DNA from: an uncultured Clostridia bacterium
GTDB lineage: Bacteria > Bacillota > Clostridia > TANB77 > CAG-508
Length of the DNA stretch: 64,000 nucleotides
Direction of reading: 5' to 3'
Assembly: GCA_944386385.1 (NCBI GenBank)
Contig: CALXAV010000005.1
Location: 1,914-65,913, forward strand
Shown one piece after another: positions 2 through 63,559 of the stretch. The translations under genes and the position numbers were made by a program. The notes beneath the pieces are model-generated. The model was given only the letters and a program-made list of their open reading frames with translations. It had not been told where the DNA came from and did no database searches. Each line of letters begins with the position of its first letter. The stretch's first letter is position 1.

Positions 2-2128
2 TATGATATAGGTCAAATTGTAATAGAAGCAAATGAATTAGTAAGTGGTGAAAAGAAAAGAAGAAGAGTTACAAATACAGCTTTTAAAGAGGGAGAAAAA
101 GTTGTTTTTGCGGATTTAAAACAAGGTGATTATGTAGTTCATAGAAGATATGGAATTGGTATTTATATTGGTGTAAATACCATTAAAGCCGATGGAATTG
201 TAAAAGATTATATTAAGATAAAATATAGAGATGATGCTATTCTTTATATTCCCACAAGTGATTTAGATAGTATAAGAAAATATGTTGGTGGAGATAGAAT
301 TAAGCCGAAGATAAATAAACTTGGAAGCAAAGAGTGGGATAATACTAAAGCTAGAGTAAAGAAGAATTTAAGAGAAGTTGCAAAAGAATTAATAGAACTT
401 TATGCAAAAAGAGAAAAAGCCACAGGTTTTAGTTTTAGTAAAGATACTCCTTGGCAAAAAGAATTTGAAGATAAATTTCCATACCAAGAAACAGATGATC
501 AATTAAGATGTATTGAAGAAATTAAAAAAGATATGGAAAAACCAAAACCAATGGATAGACTACTTTGCGGGGATGTTGGTTATGGTAAAACAGAAGTTGC
601 TATGAGAGCAGCATTTAAAGCAGCGATGGATGGAAAACAAGTTGCATATTTGGCTCCTACAACAGTTCTTGCAGAACAACAATATCAAGAATTTAAAGAA
701 AGAATGAAAGACTTTCCTGTAAAAATAGAGATATTAAATAGGTTTAAGAGCAAAAAGTATCAAAATGAAGTTGTTAAGAAGTTAAAACTTGGGGAAGTTG
801 ATATTGTAATAGGTACACATAGATTACTTGGAAAAGATGTAGAGTTTAAAGATTTGGGATTGCTAATAATAGATGAAGAGCATAGGTTTGGAGTAAAGCA
901 CAAAGAAAAAATAAAACAAATGAAGATGAATATAGACGTTTTAACAATGACAGCAACACCTATACCAAGAACTATGCATATGTCTATTGTTGGAATTCGT
1001 GATATGTCTGTTATTTACGAACCACCATATAATAGAAAGCCTGTTCAAACTTATGTATTAGAATATGACCAAGAAGTTATAAGAGAGGCAATTACAAAGG
1101 AACTTGAGAGAAATGGTCAAGTGTTCTATATATTTAATAATGTAGAAGGTATTGCAAGAAAGGCAGAAACAATATCAGAGTTGGTTCCAGAAGCAAAAGT
1201 TGCATATGCACATGGACAGATGACAGGAACTAGAATTGAAGATATTATGGAAGAGTTTGTTGAAGGAAATACTAATGTTTTGGTATGTACTACAATTCTA
1301 GAATCAGGAATTGATATCCCAAATGCTAATACTATTATTGTTGAAAATGCAGATAGAATGGGATTAGCACAGCTATATCAAATACGTGGTAGAGTTGGAA
1401 GGTCAGAAAGACAAGCATATGCATATATAACTTATAAAAGAGATAAATTGCTTACAGAAGTTGCAGATAAGAGGTTAAAAGCGATAAAAGAATTTACAGA
1501 GTTTGGTTCAGGTTTTAAAATTGCAATGAGAGACTTAGAAATAAGAGGAGCAGGAAGTTTACTTGGAGAAATTCAATCTGGACACTTAGAACAAGTAGGT
1601 TATGACACTTATTGTGATTTATTAGACCAAGTTGTAAAAGAAATGAAAGGTATTGAAGTAAAACCTGAAGTTGATATTCAAATTGATTTAGATATTACAA
1701 GTTATATACCAGACACTTATATTGAAGATAGTAGTGAAAAGATTGATATTTATCAAAAGATTGCTTTGTGCAGGACAGAAGAAGATATTGGGAATGTTAT
1801 TGATGAAATTATTGATAGATTTGGTAATATGCCAAAAGAATTGAATAACCTATTAGAGATTGCAAGAATTAAACAATTATGCAATTTAACAGCAGTTATA
1901 AAAGTTACAGAAAAGAAAAATAGAACTACAGGTTCTCAAAATGTTGTCTTCTATTTTGATAAAGATAAATATGATCCAAATATTATAACTACACTTTTAA
2001 AGAAATACGGAACTAAGATTAAGTTTTCAACTGGTATTGAGCCATATATTACCTTACTTCTTAAGAACAAGACAGAAGAACAACTTATTAAAGAGATAAA
2101 AGAGTTTTTGAATACAGTAAAAATTTAA
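2..2128 (+). CDS. mfd: Transcription-repair coupling factor Mfd, 5'-truncated by the window edge
   Basis: Frame is open from base 2. Translation shows a CarD-like region (DYVVHRRYGIGIY), helicase motifs (GDVGYGKTEVA, IIDEEHRFG, QLYQIRGRVGRS) and a TRCF C-terminal domain. Confidence 0.93.
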   Translation, partial: YDIGQIVIEANELVSGEKKRRRVTNTAFKEGEKVVFADLKQGDYVVHRRYGIGIYIGVNTIKADGIVKDYIKIKYRDDAILYIPTSDLDSIRKYVGGDRIKPKINKLGSKEWDNTKARVKKNLREVAKELIELYAKREKATGFSFSKDTPWQKEFEDKFPYQETDDQLRCIEEIKKDMEKPKPMDRLLCGDVGYGKTEVAMRAAFKAAMDGKQVAYLAPTTVLAEQQYQEFKERMKDFPVKIEILNRFKSKKYQNEVVKKLKLGEVDIVIGTHRLLGKDVEFKDLGLLIIDEEHRFGVKHKEKIKQMKMNIDVLTMTATPIPRTMHMSIVGIRDMSVIYEPPYNRKPVQTYVLEYDQEVIREAITKELERNGQVFYIFNNVEGIARKAETISELVPEAKVAYAHGQMTGTRIEDIMEEFVEGNTNVLVCTTILESGIDIPNANTIIVENADRMGLAQLYQIRGRVGRSERQAYAYITYKRDKLLTEVADKRLKAIKEFTEFGSGFKIAMRDLEIRGAGSLLGEIQSGHLEQVGYDTYCDLLDQVVKEMKGIEVKPEVDIQIDLDITSYIPDTYIEDSSEKIDIYQKIALCRTEEDIGNVIDEIIDRFGNMPKELNNLLEIARIKQLCNLTAVIKVTEKKNRTTGSQNVVFYFDKDKYDPNIITTLLKKYGTKIKFSTGIEPYITLLLKNKTEEQLIKEIKEFLNTVKI

Positions 2129-2169
2129 TTTCGCGTTTGGGACACATCTTAAGCGAAAAGGGGATTGTA

Positions 2170-2268
2170 GTAAGTTTTTAAATTTAAGCTTCGCTTAAGC
2201 GGCAATTTGCTACCCTTAATATCCCCTACGCAAATTGCCTAATTTAAAAACTTACTTATACTTTTTTT
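2170..2268 (+). terminator. Long composite terminator structure downstream of mfd
   Basis: 15-bp perfect inverted repeat GTAAGTTTTTAAATT (2170-2184) / AATTTAAAAACTTAC (2241-2255), followed by TTATACTTTTTTT. It encloses further 10-bp stems. Confidence 0.5.
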
Positions 2269-2315
2269 AAAAAATAAAAAATACCTTTAGATAAAATTAA
2301 TATCAATAGGTATTT

Positions 2316-2534
2316 TCATTTTTGCCTTGGATATGGTTTTGTTTCATTGGTTAAACCTAGTAAGTAGTCTATACTTGTGTTATAAAATTCAGATAATTTT
2401 ATTAATGATGATATAGGAATATTTATTTTGCCTAATTCATATTTACTATAATTTGTTTGAGAAATATTTAAAAATTTTGCAACATCTTCTTGCTTTAAGT
2501 CTTTGTCTTCTCTTAAATCTTTTAATCTTAGCAT
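2316..2534 (-). CDS. XRE-family helix-turn-helix transcriptional regulator (72 aa)
   Basis: HTH_3-like sequence (LKQEDVAKFLNISQTNYSKYELGK). RBS AAGGAGG lies upstream of the ATG at 2534. Divergent from the pilin-like gene at 2806. Confidence 0.85.
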   Translation of the reverse strand: MLRLKDLREDKDLKQEDVAKFLNISQTNYSKYELGKINIPISSLIKLSEFYNTSIDYLLGLTNETKPYPRQK

Positions 2535-2805
2535 ATAGCCTCCTTAAGATTATTATTTCAATTTTTAAATATTTTATAATAGTTACAATATGACTATTGA
2601 CAAATAGTTATATTTTGACTAAAATAATTGTAGATAATAATAAGATAAATACATGTATGAATTGTGTTTAAGATGATAATATCAGGAAATAATATAATAA
2701 ATGAAATTCTGTATAAGATATTTACAAATATCTTATGTTATATTAAGATGTTATTATAATACACGACATATATGTCGACAAATAACAAATGAAAGGAAGA
2801 AAAAT

Positions 2806-4228
2806 ATGAGAAACAAAGGAATTACACTAATTGCACTAGTGATTACTATAATTGTTTTATTAATACTTGCTGGGGTATCAATTGCAATGTTAACAGGGGA
2901 AAATGGAATACTTAATCAAGCACAAAGAGCAAAAAATGAGACAGAACAAGCGCAAATGGAAGAAGAAAATATCTTAGGTGAATATGAAAATTATTTAAGT
3001 CAGTATACAAATGGTGGATATGTAGAAAGCAAAGGAGTAAATGCTCCAGTATTAAAAGATGGAATGAAACTTGTAACTTATAATGAAGAAACTAAGAATT
3101 GGGATACAAATAATTCTAGTTCAGCTTATGATTATGTAGCAGGAGAAGGAACAGAAGATAATAATTCTAGCAAATGGGCAAATGCAAAGCTAACAATAGA
3201 TGGAGTAGATGGTTACTTTGTATGGATACCAAGATATGCATATAAAATAACATATAATGAAGATAGAATAGGTGGAATAATAGATGTAAAATTTTTAATA
3301 GGAACAACAGACCAATATTATGATGATGAAGGAAATTTACAAACAGCAAAAAGAGCAACAACAGGAAATGAAGACACATCAAATGATTACTATGTACATC
3401 CAGCTTTTACAAATAATGTGGAATTAGGTGGATGGAGTGAAGAATTAACGGGAATATGGGTAGGAAAATACGAAAGTAGTTTAGTAGATAAAACAGATAA
3501 AGATAATATAAAGAATATAGAAACTACTGAAGAAAACGGAAATATACTTTTGTCAGAAAACCCTAATAATGCAATAGCGGTGCAGCCAGGAATTAGTTCT
3601 TGGAGATATTGTACTATAGGAAATATGTATACAAATGCAAGATTATATGCAGAAAACTTAAATTCTCATATGCTAAAAAATAGTGAATGGGGAGCAGTAG
3701 CATATTTAACGTATAGTAGGTACCGGAAGAAATGGTTATGAGATAACTATAAATAATAGCAGTCAACATATAACTGGTTCGGCAGGAAATAGTGTAAATG
3801 CAGGAGAAGATGAGGGAACAACCAATGATTATACAAGTATACAGGGAGTACTTGCAAGTAGCACAGGAAATGTATATGGAATATATGATTTGTCAGGAGG
3901 CGCATATGAATATGTAGCAGCATATTACAATAGAGGAGATACTTTAGTAAATGGAAGTTCTTTCGCAAGTATAGGAAAAGATAATACAAAATGGAGTATG
4001 GCATATAAAGGACAAAATATTGAAATTAATGCTTTAATAGGGGATGCTACAAAAGAAGTAAAGAATTGGAATAATGATTCTTCTTATTTTGTAGCGAAAA
4101 CCGTACCATTTCTTGATAGAGGGGGAGGATATAAAAATAGTAGTAATGCAGGGATTTTCTTTTCTGGAAGAGAAGATGGTAGTAGCAAAGATAGTGCTGG
4201 ATTTCGAATGTGTATTATAACAAAATAA
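2806..4228 (+). pseudogene. Prepilin-type N-terminal domain protein with C-terminal FGE-sulfatase (SUMF1-like) domain, interrupted by a +1 frameshift near 3718
   Basis: RBS GAAAGGAAG precedes the ATG at 2806 (MRNKGITLIALVITIIVLLILAGVSIAMLTGENG). Frame 1 stops at 3741, while frame 2 is open from 3710 and continues (GTGRNGYEITINN...GNVYGIYDLSGGAYEYV...RGGGY...GFRM). It is collinear with the intact paralog at 61383-62651. Confidence 0.75.
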
Positions 4229-12114: not shown

Positions 12115-12684
12115 ATGAATGATACAGCATTAAAAATTGCTCCTATAATACTTGAAACAATTACTAATATGCGAGGAGCCTTTAAAGGTTGTACTAGTTT
12201 AGAAAATGCACCAGCAATTCCTGGGAATGTAACTAATTTATTGGCAGCTTTTGAGAATTGTTCAAGTCTTTTAGAAGCTCCTGTTTTACCAGATAATGCT
12301 GAAAATATTAGTTGGGCATTTCATAATTGTACTAATTTAGAAACAGCACCTACTATACCTAATAAAGTAAAAAATATGCATGCGACATTTAATCAATGTT
12401 ATAATTTAGTAAATGGTTCAGATATTCCTGAAAGTGTTGAAGATATTACTTTTGTTTATTTCAGATGTTATAAGTTGAGTGGAAAAATAGAAGTAAATGC
12501 TAATGTTTCGGGAAAAAACGTTGATGACTATGATTATATAGATTATTATCAATGCTTCTATGATGCAGCAACTGATGAAAATGCAAATCTAACTGTAAAA
12601 TGTTCTGAAAATGTTTATAATTTATTTGCTGCTAATAGTTCATTAGTATATAGTTCTAATTCAAACATAAGTTTAAAACAATAA
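12115..12684 (+). pseudogene. BspA-type leucine-rich-repeat (LRR_5) protein fragment, probably 5'-truncated
   Basis: Repeats FKGCTSLENAPAIPGNVTNL / FENCSSLLEAPVLPDNAENI / FHNCTNLETAPTIPNKVKNM. No SD before the ATG and no signal or anchor sequence. Confidence 0.5.
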
Positions 12685-12688
12685 TTAT

Positions 12689-12717
12689 TTGACATATTTT
12701 AAGATAAATAGTATAAT
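12689..12717 (+). promoter_or_regulatory. Consensus sigma-A promoter (TTGACA-17-TATAAT)
   Basis: TTGACA at 12689-12694, a 17-nt spacer, TATAAT at 12712-12717. Confidence 0.7.
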
Positions 12718-12723
12718 TTGGTT

Positions 12724-12837
12724 AGTCATAAGGAATAATTATGATTCATAACAATAAAATAAAAAAGTAAGGCCGAAGTCTTACTTAGCATTTCTAGAAT
12801 TGGGGTCGCTTTGGGAAGGGATGACCTCAATTTTTTC
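12724..12837 (+). ncRNA. Candidate ~110-nt antisense sRNA (type I antitoxin candidate)
   Basis: Lies between the consensus promoter and an intrinsic terminator (AATTGGGGTC / GACCTCAATT with one G.U, then TTTTTT at 12798-12836). Its 3' ~70 nt are antisense to the predicted 3' UTR of the minus-strand peptide gene. Confidence 0.45.
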
Positions 12838-12851
12838 TTTGCCCATAATTA

Positions 12852-12944
12852 TTATGTATCTACAAAAGCTACAAATTCCGAACTAAAAGTCCGAAGACAA
12901 AGAATTATAAAGCCAATTCCTAAACATAGAAGAAAATTCCCCAT
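12852..12944 (-). CDS. 30-aa hydrophobic peptide, candidate type I toxin
   Basis: GGAGGTG SD lies 6 nt before the ATG (12944). Peptide MGNFLLCLGIGFIILCLRTFSSEFVAFVDT. The 5' UTR has CACUCACC, able to pair with the SD region. Minus-strand terminator AAGTAAG / CTTACTT plus T run at 12786-12757. Confidence 0.5.
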   Translation of the reverse strand: MGNFLLCLGIGFIILCLRTFSSEFVAFVDT

Positions 12945-13251
12945 GGCACTCACCTCCTACGAAGTATTTGCAACTATGCTGTCTTGGTGAGTGTTTCTAA
13001 AAATGATATACATATTATATAAAAGAATATATTTAATGTTAATATAAAGTTAAACAAAAAGGTTAAAAATAAAACTAAAAACAGAATAAGTAAAACAAAA
13101 ACTTATCTTTTATTTTTGTGAAAAAATTAGTAATAAAAACAGTATGTCCCACATAGATATTAAAAGAAACAAATGAAAATTAAGGATGTGTCCCAAATGC
13201 GAAATTTTTTGCGCAAAGGAAACGTCCCTAATGCGAACAAGGAGGAAAAAT

Positions 13252-15852
13252 ATGTGGGAAACATTAAGAAAAGAAGAAGTTTTAAGAAAACTTAAGACAA
13301 ATACGAGAAGTGGATTGAATGATGAAGAAGTGATATTTAGGCGAAATAAGTACGGAAAAAATAAGTTAGAAGATAAGCCTAAAGAAAGTTTATTAGTTAA
13401 GTTTTTAAAACAATTTAATGATTTTATGATTATCATTCTAATAATAGCATCTATTGTATCAGCTGCAGTTTCGTATTTTCAAGGAGAAAATGATTATATA
13501 GACTCGGTGATTATAATAGCAATTGTAATATTAAATGCAATTATGGGAGTTGTGCAGGAAGCAAAAGCTGAAAAGTCAATTGAAGCTTTAAAAGAGATGA
13601 CACCGCCCAGAGCAAAAGTTATAAGAGATGGAGTAACTAAAGAAATAAATGCTGAAGAATTAGTACCAGGAGATATTATAATTTTAGAGGCGGGAAATTA
13701 TGTACCGGCTGATTGTAGATTATTAGAGAGTCATAACTTGAAAATAGAAGAGTCAAGTCTAACAGGGGAGACAGAAGCTGTTTTAAAAAATGCAGATATG
13801 ATAGCTAGAAAAAATGTTGCTTTAGGTGATATGCTGAATATGGCATTTATGGCAAGTATAGTTGTAAATGGAAGCGGTAAAGCTGTAGTTACAGATACAG
13901 GAATGAATACTAATGTTGGTAAAATTGCAGGTATGATAATTGAAGATGAAACACCAGAAACACCTATACAAAAGAAACTAGGACAAGTAGGAAAAGTTTT
14001 AGGTCTTGTTTGTTTAGGAATTTGTGTATTAATATTTTTAATTGGAATGATAAAGAAAATAGATCCAATAGAAATGTTTATGACATCAGTAGGATTAGCA
14101 GTTGCCGCAATACCTGAAGGGCTACCAGCAATTGTTACAATTGTATTATCAATAGGCGTAACTAAGATGGCAAAGAACAATAGTATAATCAGAAAACTTC
14201 CTGCGGTTGAAACATTAGGAAGTAGCAAAGTAATTTGTTCAGACAAAACAGGAACTTTAACACAAAACAAAATGACAGTTGTAGAAATAAAATCAAATAA
14301 TGATAATTTGGCATTGGAACTTGCAAGTATGTGTACAGATTGTGATATTGTATATGAAAAAGGAAAAACAGAAGTAAAAGGCGAACCAACAGAAGTGGCA
14401 TTAGTGGAAGGAGCTTTAAAATATAATAAAAATAAAACAGAATTATATCATATGATGCCAAGAATAAATGAAATACCGTTTGACTCGAATAGAAAAATGA
14501 TGACTACAATACATAAATTAGATAAAGGATATAGAATAATTACAAAAGGAGCACCAGATGTTTTATTAAATAGATGTAATCTATCTATTGGAGAAAGAAA
14601 TAATATAGAGCGTCAAAATGAAATGATGGCTGAAAAAGCATTAAGAGTGATTGCAGTAGCATATAAGGATATTTCTGTTTTACCTCAAAAAATGGAGTCT
14701 AATTTTGTTGAAACAGGTTTAAAGTTTGTTGGGCTAATTGGAATGATTGACCCACCAAGAGAAGGCGTAAAAGAAGCGGTAGCTACTTGTAGGCGTGCTG
14801 GAATTAAGACAGTTATGATTACAGGGGACCATATAGTTACTGCGAAGGCTATAGCTAGAGAGTTGAATATTTTAGGCAAACATGATAAAGCAATAACAGG
14901 ACAAGAATTAGATAAAATACCACAGGATAAATTAGAAAAGGAAATAAAAGATTATTCAGTATTTGCAAGAGTAACACCTGAACATAAAGTAAGGATTGTT
15001 AAAGCTTGGCAAAGTACTGGTGCAGTTGTTGCTATGACAGGTGATGGTGTAAATGATAGTCCAGCACTTAAAAATGCAGATATTGGTATAGCTATGGGAA
15101 AAAACGGAACAGATGTTGCTAAAAGTGCATCTGATATGATACTTACAGATGATAATTTTGTAACAATTGTAAAGGCTGTAAAACAAGGAAGAAATATATA
15201 TGATAATATAAAGAAAGCAATACATTTCTTAATTGCAACAAATATAGGAGAGATAGTAACAATATTTATGGGATTAGTGCTTGGATTTAAATCTCCACTT
15301 CTTGCAATACAATTATTATGGGTTAATTTAGTAACAGATTCATTGCCAGCTATTGCAATAGGATTAGAGCCTCCGGAGAAAAATATAATGACAAGAGCCC
15401 CTGTTGATAGCAAGAAAGGTATTTTTGCAGATGGATTGTGGAATAAGATTATAGTAGAAGGTATAATGCTCGGAATGCTAACATTAATAGCGTTTAGTAT
15501 AGGAAATAAATATTATGGACTAGAAGTTGGAAGAACTATGGCATTTGTTTCCTTAGGAGTATTAGAACTTATACACAGTTTTAATATAAAAAGTGAAGAA
15601 TCTATCTTTAAAACAGGAATTTTCGAAAATAAATTTTTGATAGGAAGTTTTATATTAGGAGTGCTTATACAAACTATTGTAGTTATAGTACCAGCCTTTG
15701 CAAACATATTTAGTTTAGTTCCATTAACTAGTATGCAGTGGCTAATAGTAGCAATTATTTCAATCCTTCCAATACCTATTATGGAAGTACAAAAGAAGGT
15801 AAATGAAATAAAATTTGGAAAAGTAATTTATACAGAAAAACAAAAGATATGA
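13252..15852 (+). CDS. Ca2+-transporting P-type ATPase (P2A/P2B type)
   Basis: DKTGTLT, TGDHIVTA, MTGDGVNDSPAL and PEGLP motifs plus 10 TM-type architecture. ATG at 13252 follows AGGAGGA (the track ORF start at 13186 lacks an SD). Confidence 0.9.
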   Translation: MWETLRKEEVLRKLKTNTRSGLNDEEVIFRRNKYGKNKLEDKPKESLLVKFLKQFNDFMIIILIIASIVSAAVSYFQGENDYIDSVIIIAIVILNAIMGVVQEAKAEKSIEALKEMTPPRAKVIRDGVTKEINAEELVPGDIIILEAGNYVPADCRLLESHNLKIEESSLTGETEAVLKNADMIARKNVALGDMLNMAFMASIVVNGSGKAVVTDTGMNTNVGKIAGMIIEDETPETPIQKKLGQVGKVLGLVCLGICVLIFLIGMIKKIDPIEMFMTSVGLAVAAIPEGLPAIVTIVLSIGVTKMAKNNSIIRKLPAVETLGSSKVICSDKTGTLTQNKMTVVEIKSNNDNLALELASMCTDCDIVYEKGKTEVKGEPTEVALVEGALKYNKNKTELYHMMPRINEIPFDSNRKMMTTIHKLDKGYRIITKGAPDVLLNRCNLSIGERNNIERQNEMMAEKALRVIAVAYKDISVLPQKMESNFVETGLKFVGLIGMIDPPREGVKEAVATCRRAGIKTVMITGDHIVTAKAIARELNILGKHDKAITGQELDKIPQDKLEKEIKDYSVFARVTPEHKVRIVKAWQSTGAVVAMTGDGVNDSPALKNADIGIAMGKNGTDVAKSASDMILTDDNFVTIVKAVKQGRNIYDNIKKAIHFLIATNIGEIVTIFMGLVLGFKSPLLAIQLLWVNLVTDSLPAIAIGLEPPEKNIMTRAPVDSKKGIFADGLWNKIIVEGIMLGMLTLIAFSIGNKYYGLEVGRTMAFVSLGVLELIHSFNIKSEESIFKTGIFENKFLIGSFILGVLIQTIVVIVPAFANIFSLVPLTSMQWLIVAIISILPIPIMEVQKKVNEIKFGKVIYTEKQKI

Positions 15853-55529: not shown

Positions 55530-56330
55530 ATGAATACATTAAAGTTTGAACCAGAAGGCTGGAATAATGAAATTACAAAAGTAGATAAATCTAATTTAAA
55601 AACATACATGGAAAACCAAGAAACATTACAAGGATTAGTAAGAAATTGTGATGATAATTATAATTTATATGTAAAATTTGAAAATGGATTAGTGGGAAAA
55701 ATACCACGTGAAGAAGTAGAAGCAATAAAAACAGAAGATAATGGACTTCCAAGGACAAATTTATGTGTAGGAAAAGTACATAAATTTGTACAATTTAAGA
55801 TAAAAGATGTAGAAGATGATGGAATTATATTATCTAGAAAACAAGTACAAAATGAAGCAATTAACTGGGTTAAGAATGACTTAGAAGTAGGACAAAAAGT
55901 AGATGGAATAGTAAAAAATATAAAACCATATGGAGCTTTTATTGAAATTGGAGGAGGCATTGTTGGATTAGCTCACATTGAAGATTTATCTGTTGCAAGG
56001 ATAAAGTCACCTTACGAAAGGTTGAAAATTGGACAAAAGCTTGAAGTTGTGGTAAAATCTATAAATAGAGAGCAAGGAAAAGTAATTTTATCTTATAAAG
56101 AACTATTGGGGTCATGGGAAGAAAATGCCTCAAAGTTTAAAGCAGGAAGTAAAGTTAGAGGAAAAGTAAGGGAAACAGAGAAAAATAAAAATGGTATTTT
56201 CATAGAACTTACACCTAACTTAGTTGGAATGGCAGAATATGAAGATGGACTGGAATATGGGCAAGATGTAGATGTCTATATTAAAAAAATAGACTATGAT
56301 AGAAAAAAAGTAAAATTGCTTATTGTATAA
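55530..56330 (+). CDS. S1 RNA-binding domain protein
   Basis: GQKVDGIVKNIKPYGAFIEIGGGIVGLAHIEDLS and further S1-like repeats. Confidence 0.75.
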   Translation: MNTLKFEPEGWNNEITKVDKSNLKTYMENQETLQGLVRNCDDNYNLYVKFENGLVGKIPREEVEAIKTEDNGLPRTNLCVGKVHKFVQFKIKDVEDDGIILSRKQVQNEAINWVKNDLEVGQKVDGIVKNIKPYGAFIEIGGGIVGLAHIEDLSVARIKSPYERLKIGQKLEVVVKSINREQGKVILSYKELLGSWEENASKFKAGSKVRGKVRETEKNKNGIFIELTPNLVGMAEYEDGLEYGQDVDVYIKKIDYDRKKVKLLIV

Positions 56331-56349
56331 AACAAGAGGAGGAATAAAG

Positions 56350-57285
56350 ATGGTTGAAGATGAAGAAATAAAAACTAAAGTATCACCATTTGCAATAAGA
56401 GAGGGAGAAATAAAAACATTTGATGGTAAAGATGGATATGTTTCAATGAATCAAATTGTACATAAAATAAATATTGGACATATTAATGATATTCATTTTG
56501 CTATCTTAGATTTAGTAAATGAGTTTGAATTTATAACATCAAGACAAATCTATCAAATGCTAGAGATTAAAGGAGTCGAGATTAAATCTCAAGATAAATT
56601 AAATAATAAATTAGATCAACTAGTAAAATCAAAGATTTTAACTAGATATTACTTTAATTCTGAAGAAGGTAAAGGAATTTATCGTATTTATTGTATGGAA
56701 AAAATGGGTAAATACTTATTAACTTCTCAAGAAAAAGAATGTAAATGGCAACCATCTGATAACACAAAACCAGTTGCTATGATTAAGAAAAGATTAGCAG
56801 GAAACCAAGTTTTAATTGCTTATTTAAGAAAAGTAAAAGCTTTTGACGAGTTTACTGTAAAACCAACATTAACAGCAAAAGTTGCAGGGAAGGTATTCAA
56901 AGCAACAGGTGGTAGTGTAAAACTTACTAAGAATAAAAAATCTATTCAATTTGTATTTGAAGTTATTAGAAGAGAATTAGATTGGGAGAAAAAATTAGTT
57001 GAAAAAATGAGATTATATAAAGACTTCTATGAGAATTTTGTCCCAGGTGATTCTGGATTTTCAGGAATGCCACAACTAATACTTGTTTGTGAAGATGAAA
57101 GACATATGGCAGAAACTTTCAAAGAAATTGTAACAAATCAAGTAGAAATACCTCAAATAAAATTATATTTTACAACTGATTTAAGACAAAATGAAGAAAC
57201 ACTAGAAAACACTTTAGTAGAATTTAAACTAGTAGATGGTAAATACAAGATGGAAAATGTAGAATTAAAATTATTGGGTATGTAA
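56350..57285 (+). CDS. Hypothetical protein with an N-terminal winged-helix, possibly replication-relaxation family
   Basis: ATG at 56350 follows AGAGGAGGA. ILDLVNEFEFITSRQIYQML...LVKSKILTRYYF. Family call is tentative. Confidence 0.5.
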   Translation: MVEDEEIKTKVSPFAIREGEIKTFDGKDGYVSMNQIVHKINIGHINDIHFAILDLVNEFEFITSRQIYQMLEIKGVEIKSQDKLNNKLDQLVKSKILTRYYFNSEEGKGIYRIYCMEKMGKYLLTSQEKECKWQPSDNTKPVAMIKKRLAGNQVLIAYLRKVKAFDEFTVKPTLTAKVAGKVFKATGGSVKLTKNKKSIQFVFEVIRRELDWEKKLVEKMRLYKDFYENFVPGDSGFSGMPQLILVCEDERHMAETFKEIVTNQVEIPQIKLYFTTDLRQNEETLENTLVEFKLVDGKYKMENVELKLLGM

Positions 57286-62651: not shown

Positions 62652-62844
62652 TTTATCAAATCCTTTCTTTTAAAAAACTAGTTTGGCAAATTGAAGTACT
62701 TCTAGTATAACATAACAAAAACTTCAATGCAACAAACTAGTTCGATAAATTGAAAATATTTTCTGTTTTTTCAATTAGCCAAAGTATTAAGGATAAGCAT
62801 TTATATATAATTTCATTAGAATTTAGATGTTTTGGAGGCAAAGA

Positions 62845-63081
62845 ATGAAATTATCAGATGCTATTAGAAAAAGAATAGAATATTATTTAGAAGAAAAAAA
62901 TATGAATGTTTGGAAATTATGTAAGATGTCAGGAATACCATGTTCGACTATTTCGACTTTTATGAGCGGAAAAACGGAATTATTAAAAATAGATACTTTA
63001 CTTCATATTTGTGAAGGCTTTAATATAACCTTAAGAGAATTTTTTTCAGATGAAATGTTTGACACGGCAGAACAAGACTAA
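62845..63081 (+). CDS. XRE-like HTH regulator, divergent from 61383-62651
   Basis: ATG at 62845 follows GGAGGCAAAG. IRKRIEYYLEEKNMNVWKLCKMSGIPCSTISTFMSGK. Confidence 0.75.
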   Translation: MKLSDAIRKRIEYYLEEKNMNVWKLCKMSGIPCSTISTFMSGKTELLKIDTLLHICEGFNITLREFFSDEMFDTAEQD

Positions 63082-63269
63082 ATTTATTTGTAAAACTTTA
63101 TATAAATATTGACACTATAATTAAAATTTGATATATTAGAGATCGATGAAGTGACTCCTTCAAGTTGGGTGCATAAATTAGTATTTTGTATACAACTAAA
63201 TATTAGTTTATGCACCTGACTATTACATAATATGTTAGGGGCAAATATACGAAAGAAGGGGGACATCCT

Positions 63270-63434
63270 ATGGAGAAATACCTAGGTATCGGTTTTGTTA
63301 TACTTTGCGTAGCAGTATTAGTAGGCATAATCGGAGTTGTAGGATACCAATTCTATGCAAGCAAAGAAAAAGTTGATATTAGTCCTGCGAAAACTAATAT
63401 CAACAACAATTCTGATACTTCATCTAATGAGTAA
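63270..63434 (+). CDS. 54-aa single-TM small protein
   Basis: RBS GAAGGGGGA. MEKYLGIGFVILCVAVLVGIIGVVGYQFYASKEK... Not in the track (under 60 aa). Followed by hairpin AAGGC...GCCTT plus a T run. Confidence 0.5.
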   Translation: MEKYLGIGFVILCVAVLVGIIGVVGYQFYASKEKVDISPAKTNINNNSDTSSNE

Positions 63435-63559
63435 GGCATCTAGCCTTGCTCTTTTTATATTATATGTTTTTAAAACATTTAATATTTATCTTACAAATTA
63501 ATTATAATATTTTTAAATATAAAAGTCAATATTTATTAATAATTTTATAAAATACTTCT

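Follow-up and report, generated by a model that had tools for sequence, protein, structure and literature searches.

A probable chromosomal member of an undescribed phage-associated, type I toxin-antitoxin-like family in uncultured gut Clostridia, with an interrupted peptide gene

The window analysed here comprises 64,000 nucleotides (27.6% G+C) of contig CALXAV010000005.1 (assembly GCA_944386385.1), from an uncultured Clostridia bacterium whose closest relatives are metagenome-assembled genomes of uncultured gut Clostridia, e.g. 'Clostridium sp. CAG:343' and chicken-gut bins. Between positions 12689 and 13042 it carries two short convergent genes, one on the plus strand for an antisense RNA and one on the minus strand for the messenger RNA (mRNA) of a small hydrophobic peptide. 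We call them locus 1 and propose that, in identity and architecture, the locus is probably a chromosomal member of an undescribed phage-associated family resembling type I toxin-antitoxin (TA) modules; this copy is chromosomal and lies between a leucine-rich-repeat (LRR) gene and a Ca-ATPase gene. The first-pass annotation of this DNA had described a well-formed type I candidate encoding a hydrophobic peptide of 30 amino acids (aa). The corresponding open reading frame (ORF) is present, but it is not a complete gene product: only residues 1-17 match the conserved N-terminus of a family of 52-54 aa. Nor is the 30-aa peptide the product of a well-formed locus; the toxin side of this copy has two frameshifts, a weakened -35 box, a 55-nt hairpin deletion and an A.C mismatch in the terminator.

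Direct reading of the sequence placed the minus-strand promoter, the pairing between the 5' untranslated region (5' UTR) and the Shine-Dalgarno (SD) sequence, the minus-strand terminator and the plus-strand promoter and hairpin where that annotation had put them. The features of locus 1 are as follows:
12689..12717, plus strand: promoter of the antisense RNA, TTGACA-17-TATAAT (12/12; -35 invariant and -10 nearly invariant in six orthologues)
12724..12842, plus strand: predicted antisense RNA (putative antitoxin), ~119 nt (predicted fold, alignment consensus, covariance model R1)
12725-12745, plus strand: stem-loop SL1 of the antisense RNA
12765-12786, plus strand: stem-loop SL2 of the antisense RNA
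12796-12842, plus strand: stem-loop SL3 and U run, the antisense terminator
13014..13042, minus strand: promoter of the peptide mRNA, TTAACA-17-TATAAT (11/12)
12757..13007, minus strand: peptide (putative toxin) mRNA, ~250 nt from predicted start to terminator
12995..13005, minus strand: 5' arm of the long-distance helix, CAUUUUUAGAA, pairing with 12799-12789
12789..12799, minus strand: 3' arm of the long-distance helix, UUCUAGAAAUG, directly upstream of the terminator and within the antisense-covered region
12986..12993, minus strand: anti-SD CACUCACC (read directly as CACTCACC), 8 bp with 12954-12947
12957-12953, minus strand: Shine-Dalgarno GGAGG (AGGAGGT invariant in six orthologues)
12954-12947, minus strand: stretch paired by the anti-SD, GGUGAGUG (read directly as GGTGAGTG)
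12852..12944, minus strand: ORF of the first-pass annotation, 30 codons and stop (ATG at 12944, TAA at 12854-12852)
12944-12894, minus strand: conserved family N-terminus, codons 1-17
12891..12893, minus strand: frameshift site 1, in-frame CGG after CUU (extra base 12893, +1 codon GGA)
12878..12880, minus strand: frameshift site 2, CGG after GUU (extra base 12880, +1 codon GGA)
12781..12879, minus strand: C-terminal reading frame GICSFCRYIIIMGKEKIEVIPSQSDPNSRNAK, with its stop TAA inside the 5' arm of the terminator
12757..12786, minus strand: terminator of the peptide mRNA, AAGTAAG...CTTACTT and U run (complement of SL2)

In a promoter scan the two promoters of the locus are the top two within 1.8 kb, and weaker 9/12 matches show no excess (14 found, 11.6 expected in shuffles). 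The mRNA and the antisense RNA overlap by ~84 nt (12757-12840), somewhat more than the ~70 nt of the earlier estimate.

The neighbouring Ca-ATPase gene (13252-15852) was used to fetch 80 loci from related species. A search for the pair in related genomes, which the first-pass annotation had recommended, thereby found the complete unit upstream of the same gene in five other species (L001, L002, L003, L012 and L015). The unit is exactly absent in L005, gone together with the LRR gene in L004, and reduced to a promoter and 5'-UTR remnant in L006, a pattern of presence and absence typical of such modules. As a neutral reference, 4-fold degenerate sites of the ATPase gene are 0.52-0.73 identical between the window and its relatives. 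Expressed as mean pairwise identity over six sequences, SL1 reaches 0.91, SL2 with the U run 0.94, the 5' UTR 0.82-0.84 and the ORF core 0.73, and the linker between SL3 and SL2 (0.58) is the least conserved stretch. The antisense RNA gene is the best-conserved part of the unit (91-94% in SL1 and SL2 versus 52-73% at neutral sites), and the ORF core exists in two deep allele types that are 0.62 identical to each other. The -10 box of the peptide mRNA is invariably TATAAT; its -35 box is TTGACA in four of the five relatives, TTGATA in L012 and TTAACA in the window, where the terminator stem also shows an A.C mismatch at a position that is A-U in the relatives. L003 additionally holds a second, partial copy of the module in tandem after the complete one (1805-1979; antisense RNA gene and start of the overlap, 141.9 bits with model R1), and a minus-strand ORF region of ~1.2 kb (~1980-3210) separates this tandem pair from the ATPase leader. 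Scans of JGI metagenomes with two conserved patterns of the small RNA (sRNA) found nothing, and an IMG/VR scan with a 24-mer pattern gave no match; the 17-mer AARGAAAAAATTGAGGT hit 82 IMG/VR loci, which are chance matches, none of them encoding a family member by tblastn.

The antisense RNA has a predicted fold of -34.6 kcal/mol (RNAfold; z = -5.0), as good as none of 200 shuffles, and a three-hairpin consensus emerges from the six orthologues and the extra L003 copy. In most or all orthologues the plus strand has G.U at several paired positions where the minus strand would have A.C, so that the strand argument first made from one G.U pair of the plus-strand terminator extends beyond it. Compensatory changes occur in the terminator stem, for example GAGGTC/GACCCC to GAGATC/GATCTC or GAGGTT/AACCTC. 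The covariance model R1, built from the same seven sequences, matches antisense to the 3' end of the peptide ORF in 19 of 19 further family loci. In an alignment that is itself fitted to this model, 90% of cells pair, versus 43-46% with slid partners, and 30 of 34 pairs change on both sides, values that none of 500 shuffles reached. The convergent, 3'-overlapping layout first proposed is thus backed by conservation, by covariation, by a paralogue elsewhere in the window and by the further family loci, and at sequence level the antisense RNA has a promoter and a terminator of its own, the ~84-nt overlap and conservation, as a type I antitoxin would. SL1 is not part of the stretch that can pair with the mRNA as antisense, yet across species it is 0.86-0.97 identical to the window and keeps an invariant G.U pair. 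The idea that SL1 pairs in trans with the 5' part of the mRNA was rejected because in none of the six orthologues did the duplex energies differ from shuffled controls.

On the minus strand, the folded mRNA (RNAfold, z = -2.0) contains the 8-bp anti-SD helix in the minimum free energy and centroid structures alike, and the alignment consensus keeps it, in agreement with the SD occlusion proposed earlier. Among members of the family the pairing has been switched on both sides, to CCCACC/GGUGGG in L096 and CUCCUUC/GAAGGAG in subfamily 2. The 5' UTR of the relatives runs from the anti-SD through a ~55-nt hairpin with compensatory changes to the SD; this central hairpin, which would sit between 12976 and 12975, is absent from the window through a deletion between GTTG repeats. 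Owing to that deletion, a whole-mRNA MAFFT alignment misplaced the 5' end of the window, and the long-distance helix between the two ends of the mRNA was therefore tested by comparing cognate with non-cognate duplex energies. In the window the helix joins 13005-12995 to 12799-12789 over 11 bp, and its cognate duplex (-10.3 kcal/mol) ranks 1 of 14; over the 14 loci the mean is -10.2 kcal/mol for cognate versus -5.7 for non-cognate duplexes. The cognate partner came first in seven loci and was elsewhere beaten mostly by close relatives, L093 being an outlier at rank 13. Compensatory changes in this helix are found in all orthologues and in the second subfamily, and the variable linker near the terminator always matches its own 5' end.

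A scan of the window with R1 found the paralogue, a diverged second copy, at 63350-63488 of the minus strand. The locus around it (locus 2, 63109-63529) has the convergent layout of locus 1 in the opposite orientation:
63109..63137, plus strand: promoter of the peptide mRNA, TTGACA-17-TATATT, with TG before the -10
63270..63434, plus strand: intact ORF of 54 aa, MEKYLGIGFVILCVAVLVGIIGVVGYQFYASKEKVDISPAKTNINNNSDTSSNE
63429-63451, plus strand: terminator of the peptide mRNA; its 5' arm contains the stop codon
63365..63529, minus strand: antisense RNA gene (R1 29.4 bits, E = 0.0045)
63529-63501, minus strand: antisense promoter TTGACT-17-TATAAT
~63494 to 63365, minus strand: predicted antisense RNA
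63404-63372, minus strand: antisense terminator

The locus 2 mRNA, whose 5' UTR is highly structured, folds with z = -7.7; its fold shows the anti-SD helix and the 5'-3' helix together with a long hairpin. The antisense RNA of locus 2 folds with z = -4.35 into three hairpins. In both loci the mRNA is predicted to block its own translation through the anti-SD helix and the 5'-3' helix, and a silent, locked mRNA together with a dedicated antisense RNA is a hallmark of the design of type I toxin mRNAs. A protein with a Replic_Relax domain (56323-57282) and a Cro/C1-type helix-turn-helix (HTH) protein (62827-63081) are encoded close by, which suggests that locus 2 lies at the border of an integrated mobile element and beside pflA; the HTH gene is directly upstream of locus 2, as it is in L082 and L094.

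The locus 2 peptide has homologues in 48 clusters at 60-98% identity. A profile search of 1.84 billion proteins returned 41 representatives, which marks the family as small and lineage-restricted. Intact members of 52-54 aa have the size expected of a type I toxin (<60 aa), with one hydrophobic span in the N-terminal half and a charged tail, SKEK(I/V)(E/D)(V/I)xP; the family consensus is MEKYIGIGFVILCLAVLVGIxGILGYQFxxSKEKVDISPA... Of about 40 clusters of family proteins from gut metagenomes, most lie between a phage endolysin and an integrase. Five distinct contexts have the gene converging on the endolysin or holin gene of a phage, beside an integrase or at a prophage end, another copy lies among zeta-toxin and HEPN/nucleotidyltransferase genes, and the family occurs on seven IMG/VR viral contigs, mostly near contig ends. 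In subfamily 2 an opposite-strand promoter (10-12 of 12) lies downstream of the ORF in all eight loci examined. The first-pass annotation had recognised no family for the peptide, and indeed searches of Pfam, NCBIfam and PHROG gave nothing above threshold; the sub-threshold similarities are to OAD_gamma (PF04277, 23.3 bits, cut-off 27), TIGR01195 (18.1 bits, cut-off 36.05), DUF3951 (24.9 bits, cut-off 26.3) and a holin PHROG (E = 0.02). The only name in the sources, the JGI label OadG, was rejected, its scores being below the cut-offs and decarboxylase genes not being adjacent. Rfam gave no family at gathering score over the whole window, and around the locus only chance-level matches at E <= 10. 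The family is thus previously undescribed, and no curated peptide or RNA family covers it. Against 50,697 cultured or deposited phage records, tblastn of the 54-aa member, run with the low-complexity filter on, found no match at E <= 10, and blastn found a 51-nt chance match only. A protein search with the 54-aa read-through sequence of locus 1 found no candidate sharing enough words, so subfamily-1 fragments are evidently not called as genes. One gene call in a further relative (L097, an ENA contig of 580 nt, positions 268-489) yields a protein, P0083, in which TGA is taken as tryptophan and which has two stops under table 11; the real ORF starts later than this call, and the locus lacks the usual 5' UTR and carries an interruption of the kind described next.

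In all six orthologues, intact members of the family align to the peptide gene of locus 1 in different frames, residues ~1-17 in one and ~19-52 in another, and in the window the intact relatives align in three different frames. Removing bases 12893 and 12880 yields a 53-aa protein, MGNFLLCLGIGFIILCLGLLVGICSFCRYIIIMGKEKIEVIPSQSDPNSRNAK, which closely matches the intact P0061 (...MESFLLLVGIGFVILCIGLLVGFTGIFKYIVKLSKEKIEVSPAKSNPNSNEHIE); removal of one or two bases gives 52-53 aa in each orthologue. Because the rest of the homologous protein aligns in other frames, residues 18-30 of the peptide first annotated are an out-of-frame read. The in-frame reads also differ from one another: translation would end at codon 22 in L002 and with RHFSYTY in the L001 type, and L015 uses a third frame.

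Each interruption consists of one extra base directly before a glycine codon. The window (W) and L002 carry both sites, L001, L012 and L003a site 1 only, L015 site 2 only, and the intact L096 neither. The sites read as follows:
Site 1: CTT-C-GGA in W and L002; CTA-C-GGC in L012; TTA-C-GGC in L001 and L003a; GTT-C-GGA in L097
Site 2: GTT-C-GGA in W; GTT-C-GGT in L015; GTT-A-GGA in L002
Site 3: GTT-C-GGT in L186, a subfamily-2 gene on an IMG/VR contig (its relatives read GTT-GGT, without the extra base)

All ten shift sites, at three positions, conform to codon-C/A-GGN, the in-frame codon being CGG nine times and AGG once; the signature is found at three glycine codons in two subfamilies, one of them on a phage contig. 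CGG is the rarest codon of the genome, used once in the 13,561 codons of the long ORFs of the window (0.07 per 1000), where AGG stands at 4.5 per 1000 and GGA, the commonest glycine codon, at 38.6 per 1000. None of 13 intact family ORFs contains an in-frame CGG. The sites thus combine a slowly decoded in-frame codon with a readily decoded +1 codon, as +1 frameshift sites do. The two sites of the window form a short direct repeat, TTCGGA(C/A)T...TTCGGA, 13 nt apart (12877-12895, minus strand). Independent translation of the tail ORF was considered and rejected as a general explanation, because an ATG (MGKEKIEV...) is present in the window and L002 and none is found in L001, L012, L003a and L015.

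Substitutions between related genomes bear on whether the shifted frames are read. In each of the three segments, the corrected frame gives the lowest ratio of non-synonymous to synonymous changes (pN/pS) over all pairs (0.43, 0.55 and 0.56, versus 0.73-4.5 in other frames); for codons 2-17 it is 0.43, versus 0.73 and 4.5. Between W and L002, which share both shifts, six changes are synonymous and two non-synonymous in the corrected frame; their three mid-segment changes, which also appear in an independent metagenome contig, are all non-synonymous in the frame of the 30-aa ORF. L001 and L012 differ in the mid-segment by four synonymous changes and one non-synonymous, which in the in-frame read would alter three of the seven residues after the shift (RHFSYTY versus RHIGYNY). 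Among shift-sharing genomes seven of eight mid-segment substitutions are therefore synonymous, a count that comes from few and non-independent sequences. Together with the compensating regulatory helices in the shifted lineages, the pN/pS values and the synonymous bias speak for translation of the downstream frames, either now or until very recently. Likewise, the one narrow form shared by the insertions argues for selection, as far as can be judged from sequence, for a leaky type of frameshift, with a starved CGG followed by a +1 glycine codon.

We thus propose the following mode of action. Both RNAs, we infer, are transcribed. The ~250-nt mRNA would encode a small single-pass membrane peptide, presumably toxic, and would be translationally silent, its extreme 5' end pairing near the terminator and the upstream CACUCACC pairing across the ribosome-binding site. 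The strong plus-strand promoter would drive the ~119-nt antisense RNA with its three hairpins, and its last ~84 nt are fully complementary to mRNA sequence at the 3' end that takes in both the terminator and the 3' arm of the long-distance helix. If the pair works as do txpA/RatA, bsrG/SR4 and the RCd RNAs of Clostridioides difficile, the resulting duplex would lead to degradation of the mRNA by RNases, and the peptide would not be made. In the window an extra C precedes a glycine codon twice (CUU-C-GGA at 12893 and GUU-C-GGA at 12880), so that in-frame reading would meet CGG and end as the 30-aa product. Leaky +1 ribosomal frameshifting at these CGG sites is the reading that we prefer, while holding it tentatively and with real doubt: synthesis of the full-length peptide would then depend on rare +1 shifts at a starved CGG, which would attenuate the toxin strongly rather than simply abolish it. 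It is also conceivable, and we put it forward with similar reserve, that the extra C is a device in its own right, CGG being effectively unreadable in so AT-rich a lineage and completion of a toxin gene with NNU-CGG-N possible only via the +1 GGN codon when the ribosome stalls, a throttle atop the antisense RNA and the mRNA folding; one, two or no such sites might be fitted, depending on the copy.

Several observations weigh against these proposals. The family peptide has no detectable homology to characterised type I toxins. A simple terminator scan, which demanded an unbroken stem and a loop of 3-8, returned no site and found neither terminator of the locus, both of which RNAfold predicts as hairpins. 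A run-index search found the locus in DNA runs only (chicken-gut and faecal metagenomes) and matched no RNA run. The toxin side of the window looks degraded, with its TTAACA box, lost UTR hairpin, terminator mismatch and two frameshifts, and would fit a dying gene equally. As to frameshifting, the codons before CGG (CUU, CUA, UUA and GUU) are not uniformly slippery, the window would need two successive shifts, the third site comes from one viral contig, and the shift sites are not independent, 3-5 evolutionary events probably underlying them. The synonymous bias can linger in a young pseudogene or come from recombination with intact alleles, and the window contains no tRNA genes that would give a view of tRNA-Arg(CCG).

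The data are accordingly compatible with attenuation by leaky frameshifting and with plain decay, and it could be either. A decaying toxin gene would carry ordinary inactivating frameshifts beside an antisense RNA retained, for example, for anti-addiction against prophage toxin mRNAs or for an acquired regulatory role, and we regard this as rather unlikely, though it deserves to be taken seriously. It would explain why the degenerative features are confined to the toxin side of the window (-35 box, 55-nt UTR deletion, A.C mismatch and two frameshifts) and why the RNA gene is intact and most conserved; the further-decayed remnant of L006, the lack of the locus in L005 and different defects in other members, such as a shift in an A run in P0071, fit it as well. 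What decay does not predict is that all shifts should be a C before GGN, as random inactivation would not produce this form, nor that the frames after the shifts should stay open, of the right length (52-53 aa) and synonymous-biased between shift-sharing genomes, nor that promoter, SD, anti-SD and 5'-3' helix should be kept with compensatory changes in frameshifted lineages. An anti-addiction role can draw on the collinear pairing of the locus 1 sRNA with the locus 2 mRNA, which exceeds that of shuffles (-62 versus -45 +/- 4 kcal/mol); yet this cross-duplex is far weaker than the cognate duplex (-155), and the reciprocal pairing of the locus 2 sRNA with the locus 1 mRNA is at background.

That the 30-aa peptide MGNFLLCLGIGFIILCLRTFSSEFVAFVDT should itself be the complete, functional toxin of a well-formed locus is very improbable. 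It has a proper SD and ATG, protein-level constraint acts on its codons 1-17, all six orthologues have a short ORF (21-30 aa) from the same start, and type I toxins as short as ~19-30 aa are known (Ibs, TisB and BsrE). On the other hand, residues 18-30 are not conserved (L002, the L001 type and L015 all differ), the substitutions between W and L002 and between L001 and L012 after the shift are all non-synonymous in that frame, the in-frame product has a hydrophobic run of only ~14-17 residues, its codon 18 is the CGG that occurs once in the long ORFs of the window, and the remainder of the 53-aa homologue is encoded downstream in other frames. The family might also not be a TA system at all; the peptide would then be a small phage or host membrane protein, concerned with lysis timing or superinfection exclusion or resembling a single-pass subunit, whose expression the antisense RNA would tune. 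The adjacent holin and endolysin genes and the sub-threshold similarity to single-pass families (OAD_gamma, DUF3951 and the holin PHROG) speak for this option, which we nevertheless consider unlikely: none of the matches reaches its curated cut-off, the gene faces the lysis cassette convergently, with a promoter and a terminator to itself, one member resides in an island with zeta-toxin and HEPN/nucleotidyltransferase genes, and an mRNA elaborately built for silencing, with a dedicated antisense RNA from a strong promoter, is the mark of type I toxins and not of housekeeping membrane subunits.

Two neighbours of locus 1 deserve a description. The ORF of 189 aa at 12115-12684, of the LRR_5 (BspA-type leucine-rich-repeat) kind, ends 5 nt before the sRNA promoter; since the homologous frame in L005 runs much further upstream, the copy of the window may have lost N-terminal sequence. 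Just upstream of the Ca-ATPase start (13252), a ~52-nt element at 13185-13237 has the form GTGTCCCAAA-[hairpin TGCGAAATTTTTTGCGCA]-AAGGAAACGTCCC. In contigs of chicken-gut and faecal metagenomes it is covered 10-50x as deeply as the sequence on either side, and 13185 and 13237 are the exact break points of many contigs, so it would be multi-copy or widely shared in those communities. Alignments of the ATPase leader (L001, L004, L006 and L015) show conserved GTCCC/GGGAC boxes around a hairpin that varies in sequence yet keeps its pairing, and a third box, GTCCCAC, lies at ~13146-13152. The element has no Rfam match and may be a regulatory leader or a protein-binding repeat.

The intact phage copies, the chromosomal copies with one or two frameshifts, the remnants and the empty sites form a natural series for the domestication or decay of such a module. 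If the CGG sites are indeed leaky, they would represent a new way of toxin dosing and a natural example of a ribosome at a near-unassigned codon. In either case, short ORFs picked by gene finders or readers at such loci can be pieces of a longer gene that is recoded or broken.

Programmed +1 frameshifting at starved codons is known from prfB (CUU-UGA-C) and from the yeast elements Ty1 (CUU-AGG-C) and Ty3 (GCG-AGU-U). The P-site codon CUU of prfB and Ty1 is also that of site 1 in the window (CUU-CGG-A), and locus 1 shares with these systems a slow in-frame codon (CGG/AGG), a common +1 codon (GGA) and, as far as the few sequences show, a conserved +1 frame. It differs from them in that the P-site codons of the family vary, no stimulatory element was identified, two sites stand in series in the window, and some relatives are without one or both. 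Mycoplasma capricolum is a documented case of an AT-rich genome that has lost CGG (PMC4695839). No report that ties programmed frameshifting to type I toxins turned up in a literature search.

As for the mRNA, hok/Sok and Helicobacter aapA1/IsoA1 resemble the family in that a helix joins the 5' end to a 3' site, in addition to SD occlusion; in hok and aapA1 this long-distance interaction keeps the full-length mRNA inert. The antisense RNAs of hok and aapA1 target the 5' region and the translation initiation region, whereas that of the family lies over the 3' end and the helix arm found there, and the two systems have no sequence relationship to it. Metastable and locking structures are described for aapA1 (PMC6733600).

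Closer in host are the prophage modules of C. difficile (CD0977.1/RCd11 and CD0956.2/RCd10), which are convergent and encode toxins of 34-47 aa with a hydrophobic N-terminus and a charged C-terminal tail; they have AGGAGG 7-8 nt before the ATG, lie inside prophages, and include unannotated copies found only by tblastn (PMC7699646). Clostridial host, convergence, peptide plan, AGGAGG spacing and prophage location are all shared with the family. The tail is lysine-rich in the C. difficile toxins and of mixed charge in the family (SKEKVDISPAK...), and interruptions by CGG are not described for the C. difficile modules. Homology to these toxins is not detectable, as the tblastn search of the phage records was empty at E = 10.

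The architecture of txpA/RatA and bsrG/SR4 of Bacillus subtilis, prophage- or skin-borne systems invoked by the first-pass annotation, does apply: two convergent genes give an antisense RNA and a toxin mRNA that overlap at the 3' end of the latter. Like these systems, the family has a small hydrophobic membrane peptide, a sequestered SD and a prophage location, and its setting beside phage lysis genes fits the precedents from B. subtilis and C. difficile. The peptide itself is without similarity to TxpA or BsrG, no NCBIfam or Pfam toxin family matches it at E <= 10, and the RNA of the locus has no Rfam match to RatA, SR4 or any other RNA. Locus 1 further stands apart by being chromosomal, in its LRR/Ca-ATPase setting, with a frameshifted ORF, and the family mRNA has a 5'-3' helix like that of hok and aapA1. 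Type I TA systems, so far described largely in a handful of model organisms, would thus gain an uncharacterised TA-like family from low-GC, uncultured gut Clostridia and the phages of these bacteria, one that combines two designs usually found separately, the 3'-overlapping antisense RNA of Bacillus and C. difficile and the 5'-3' lock in the style of hok and aapA1.

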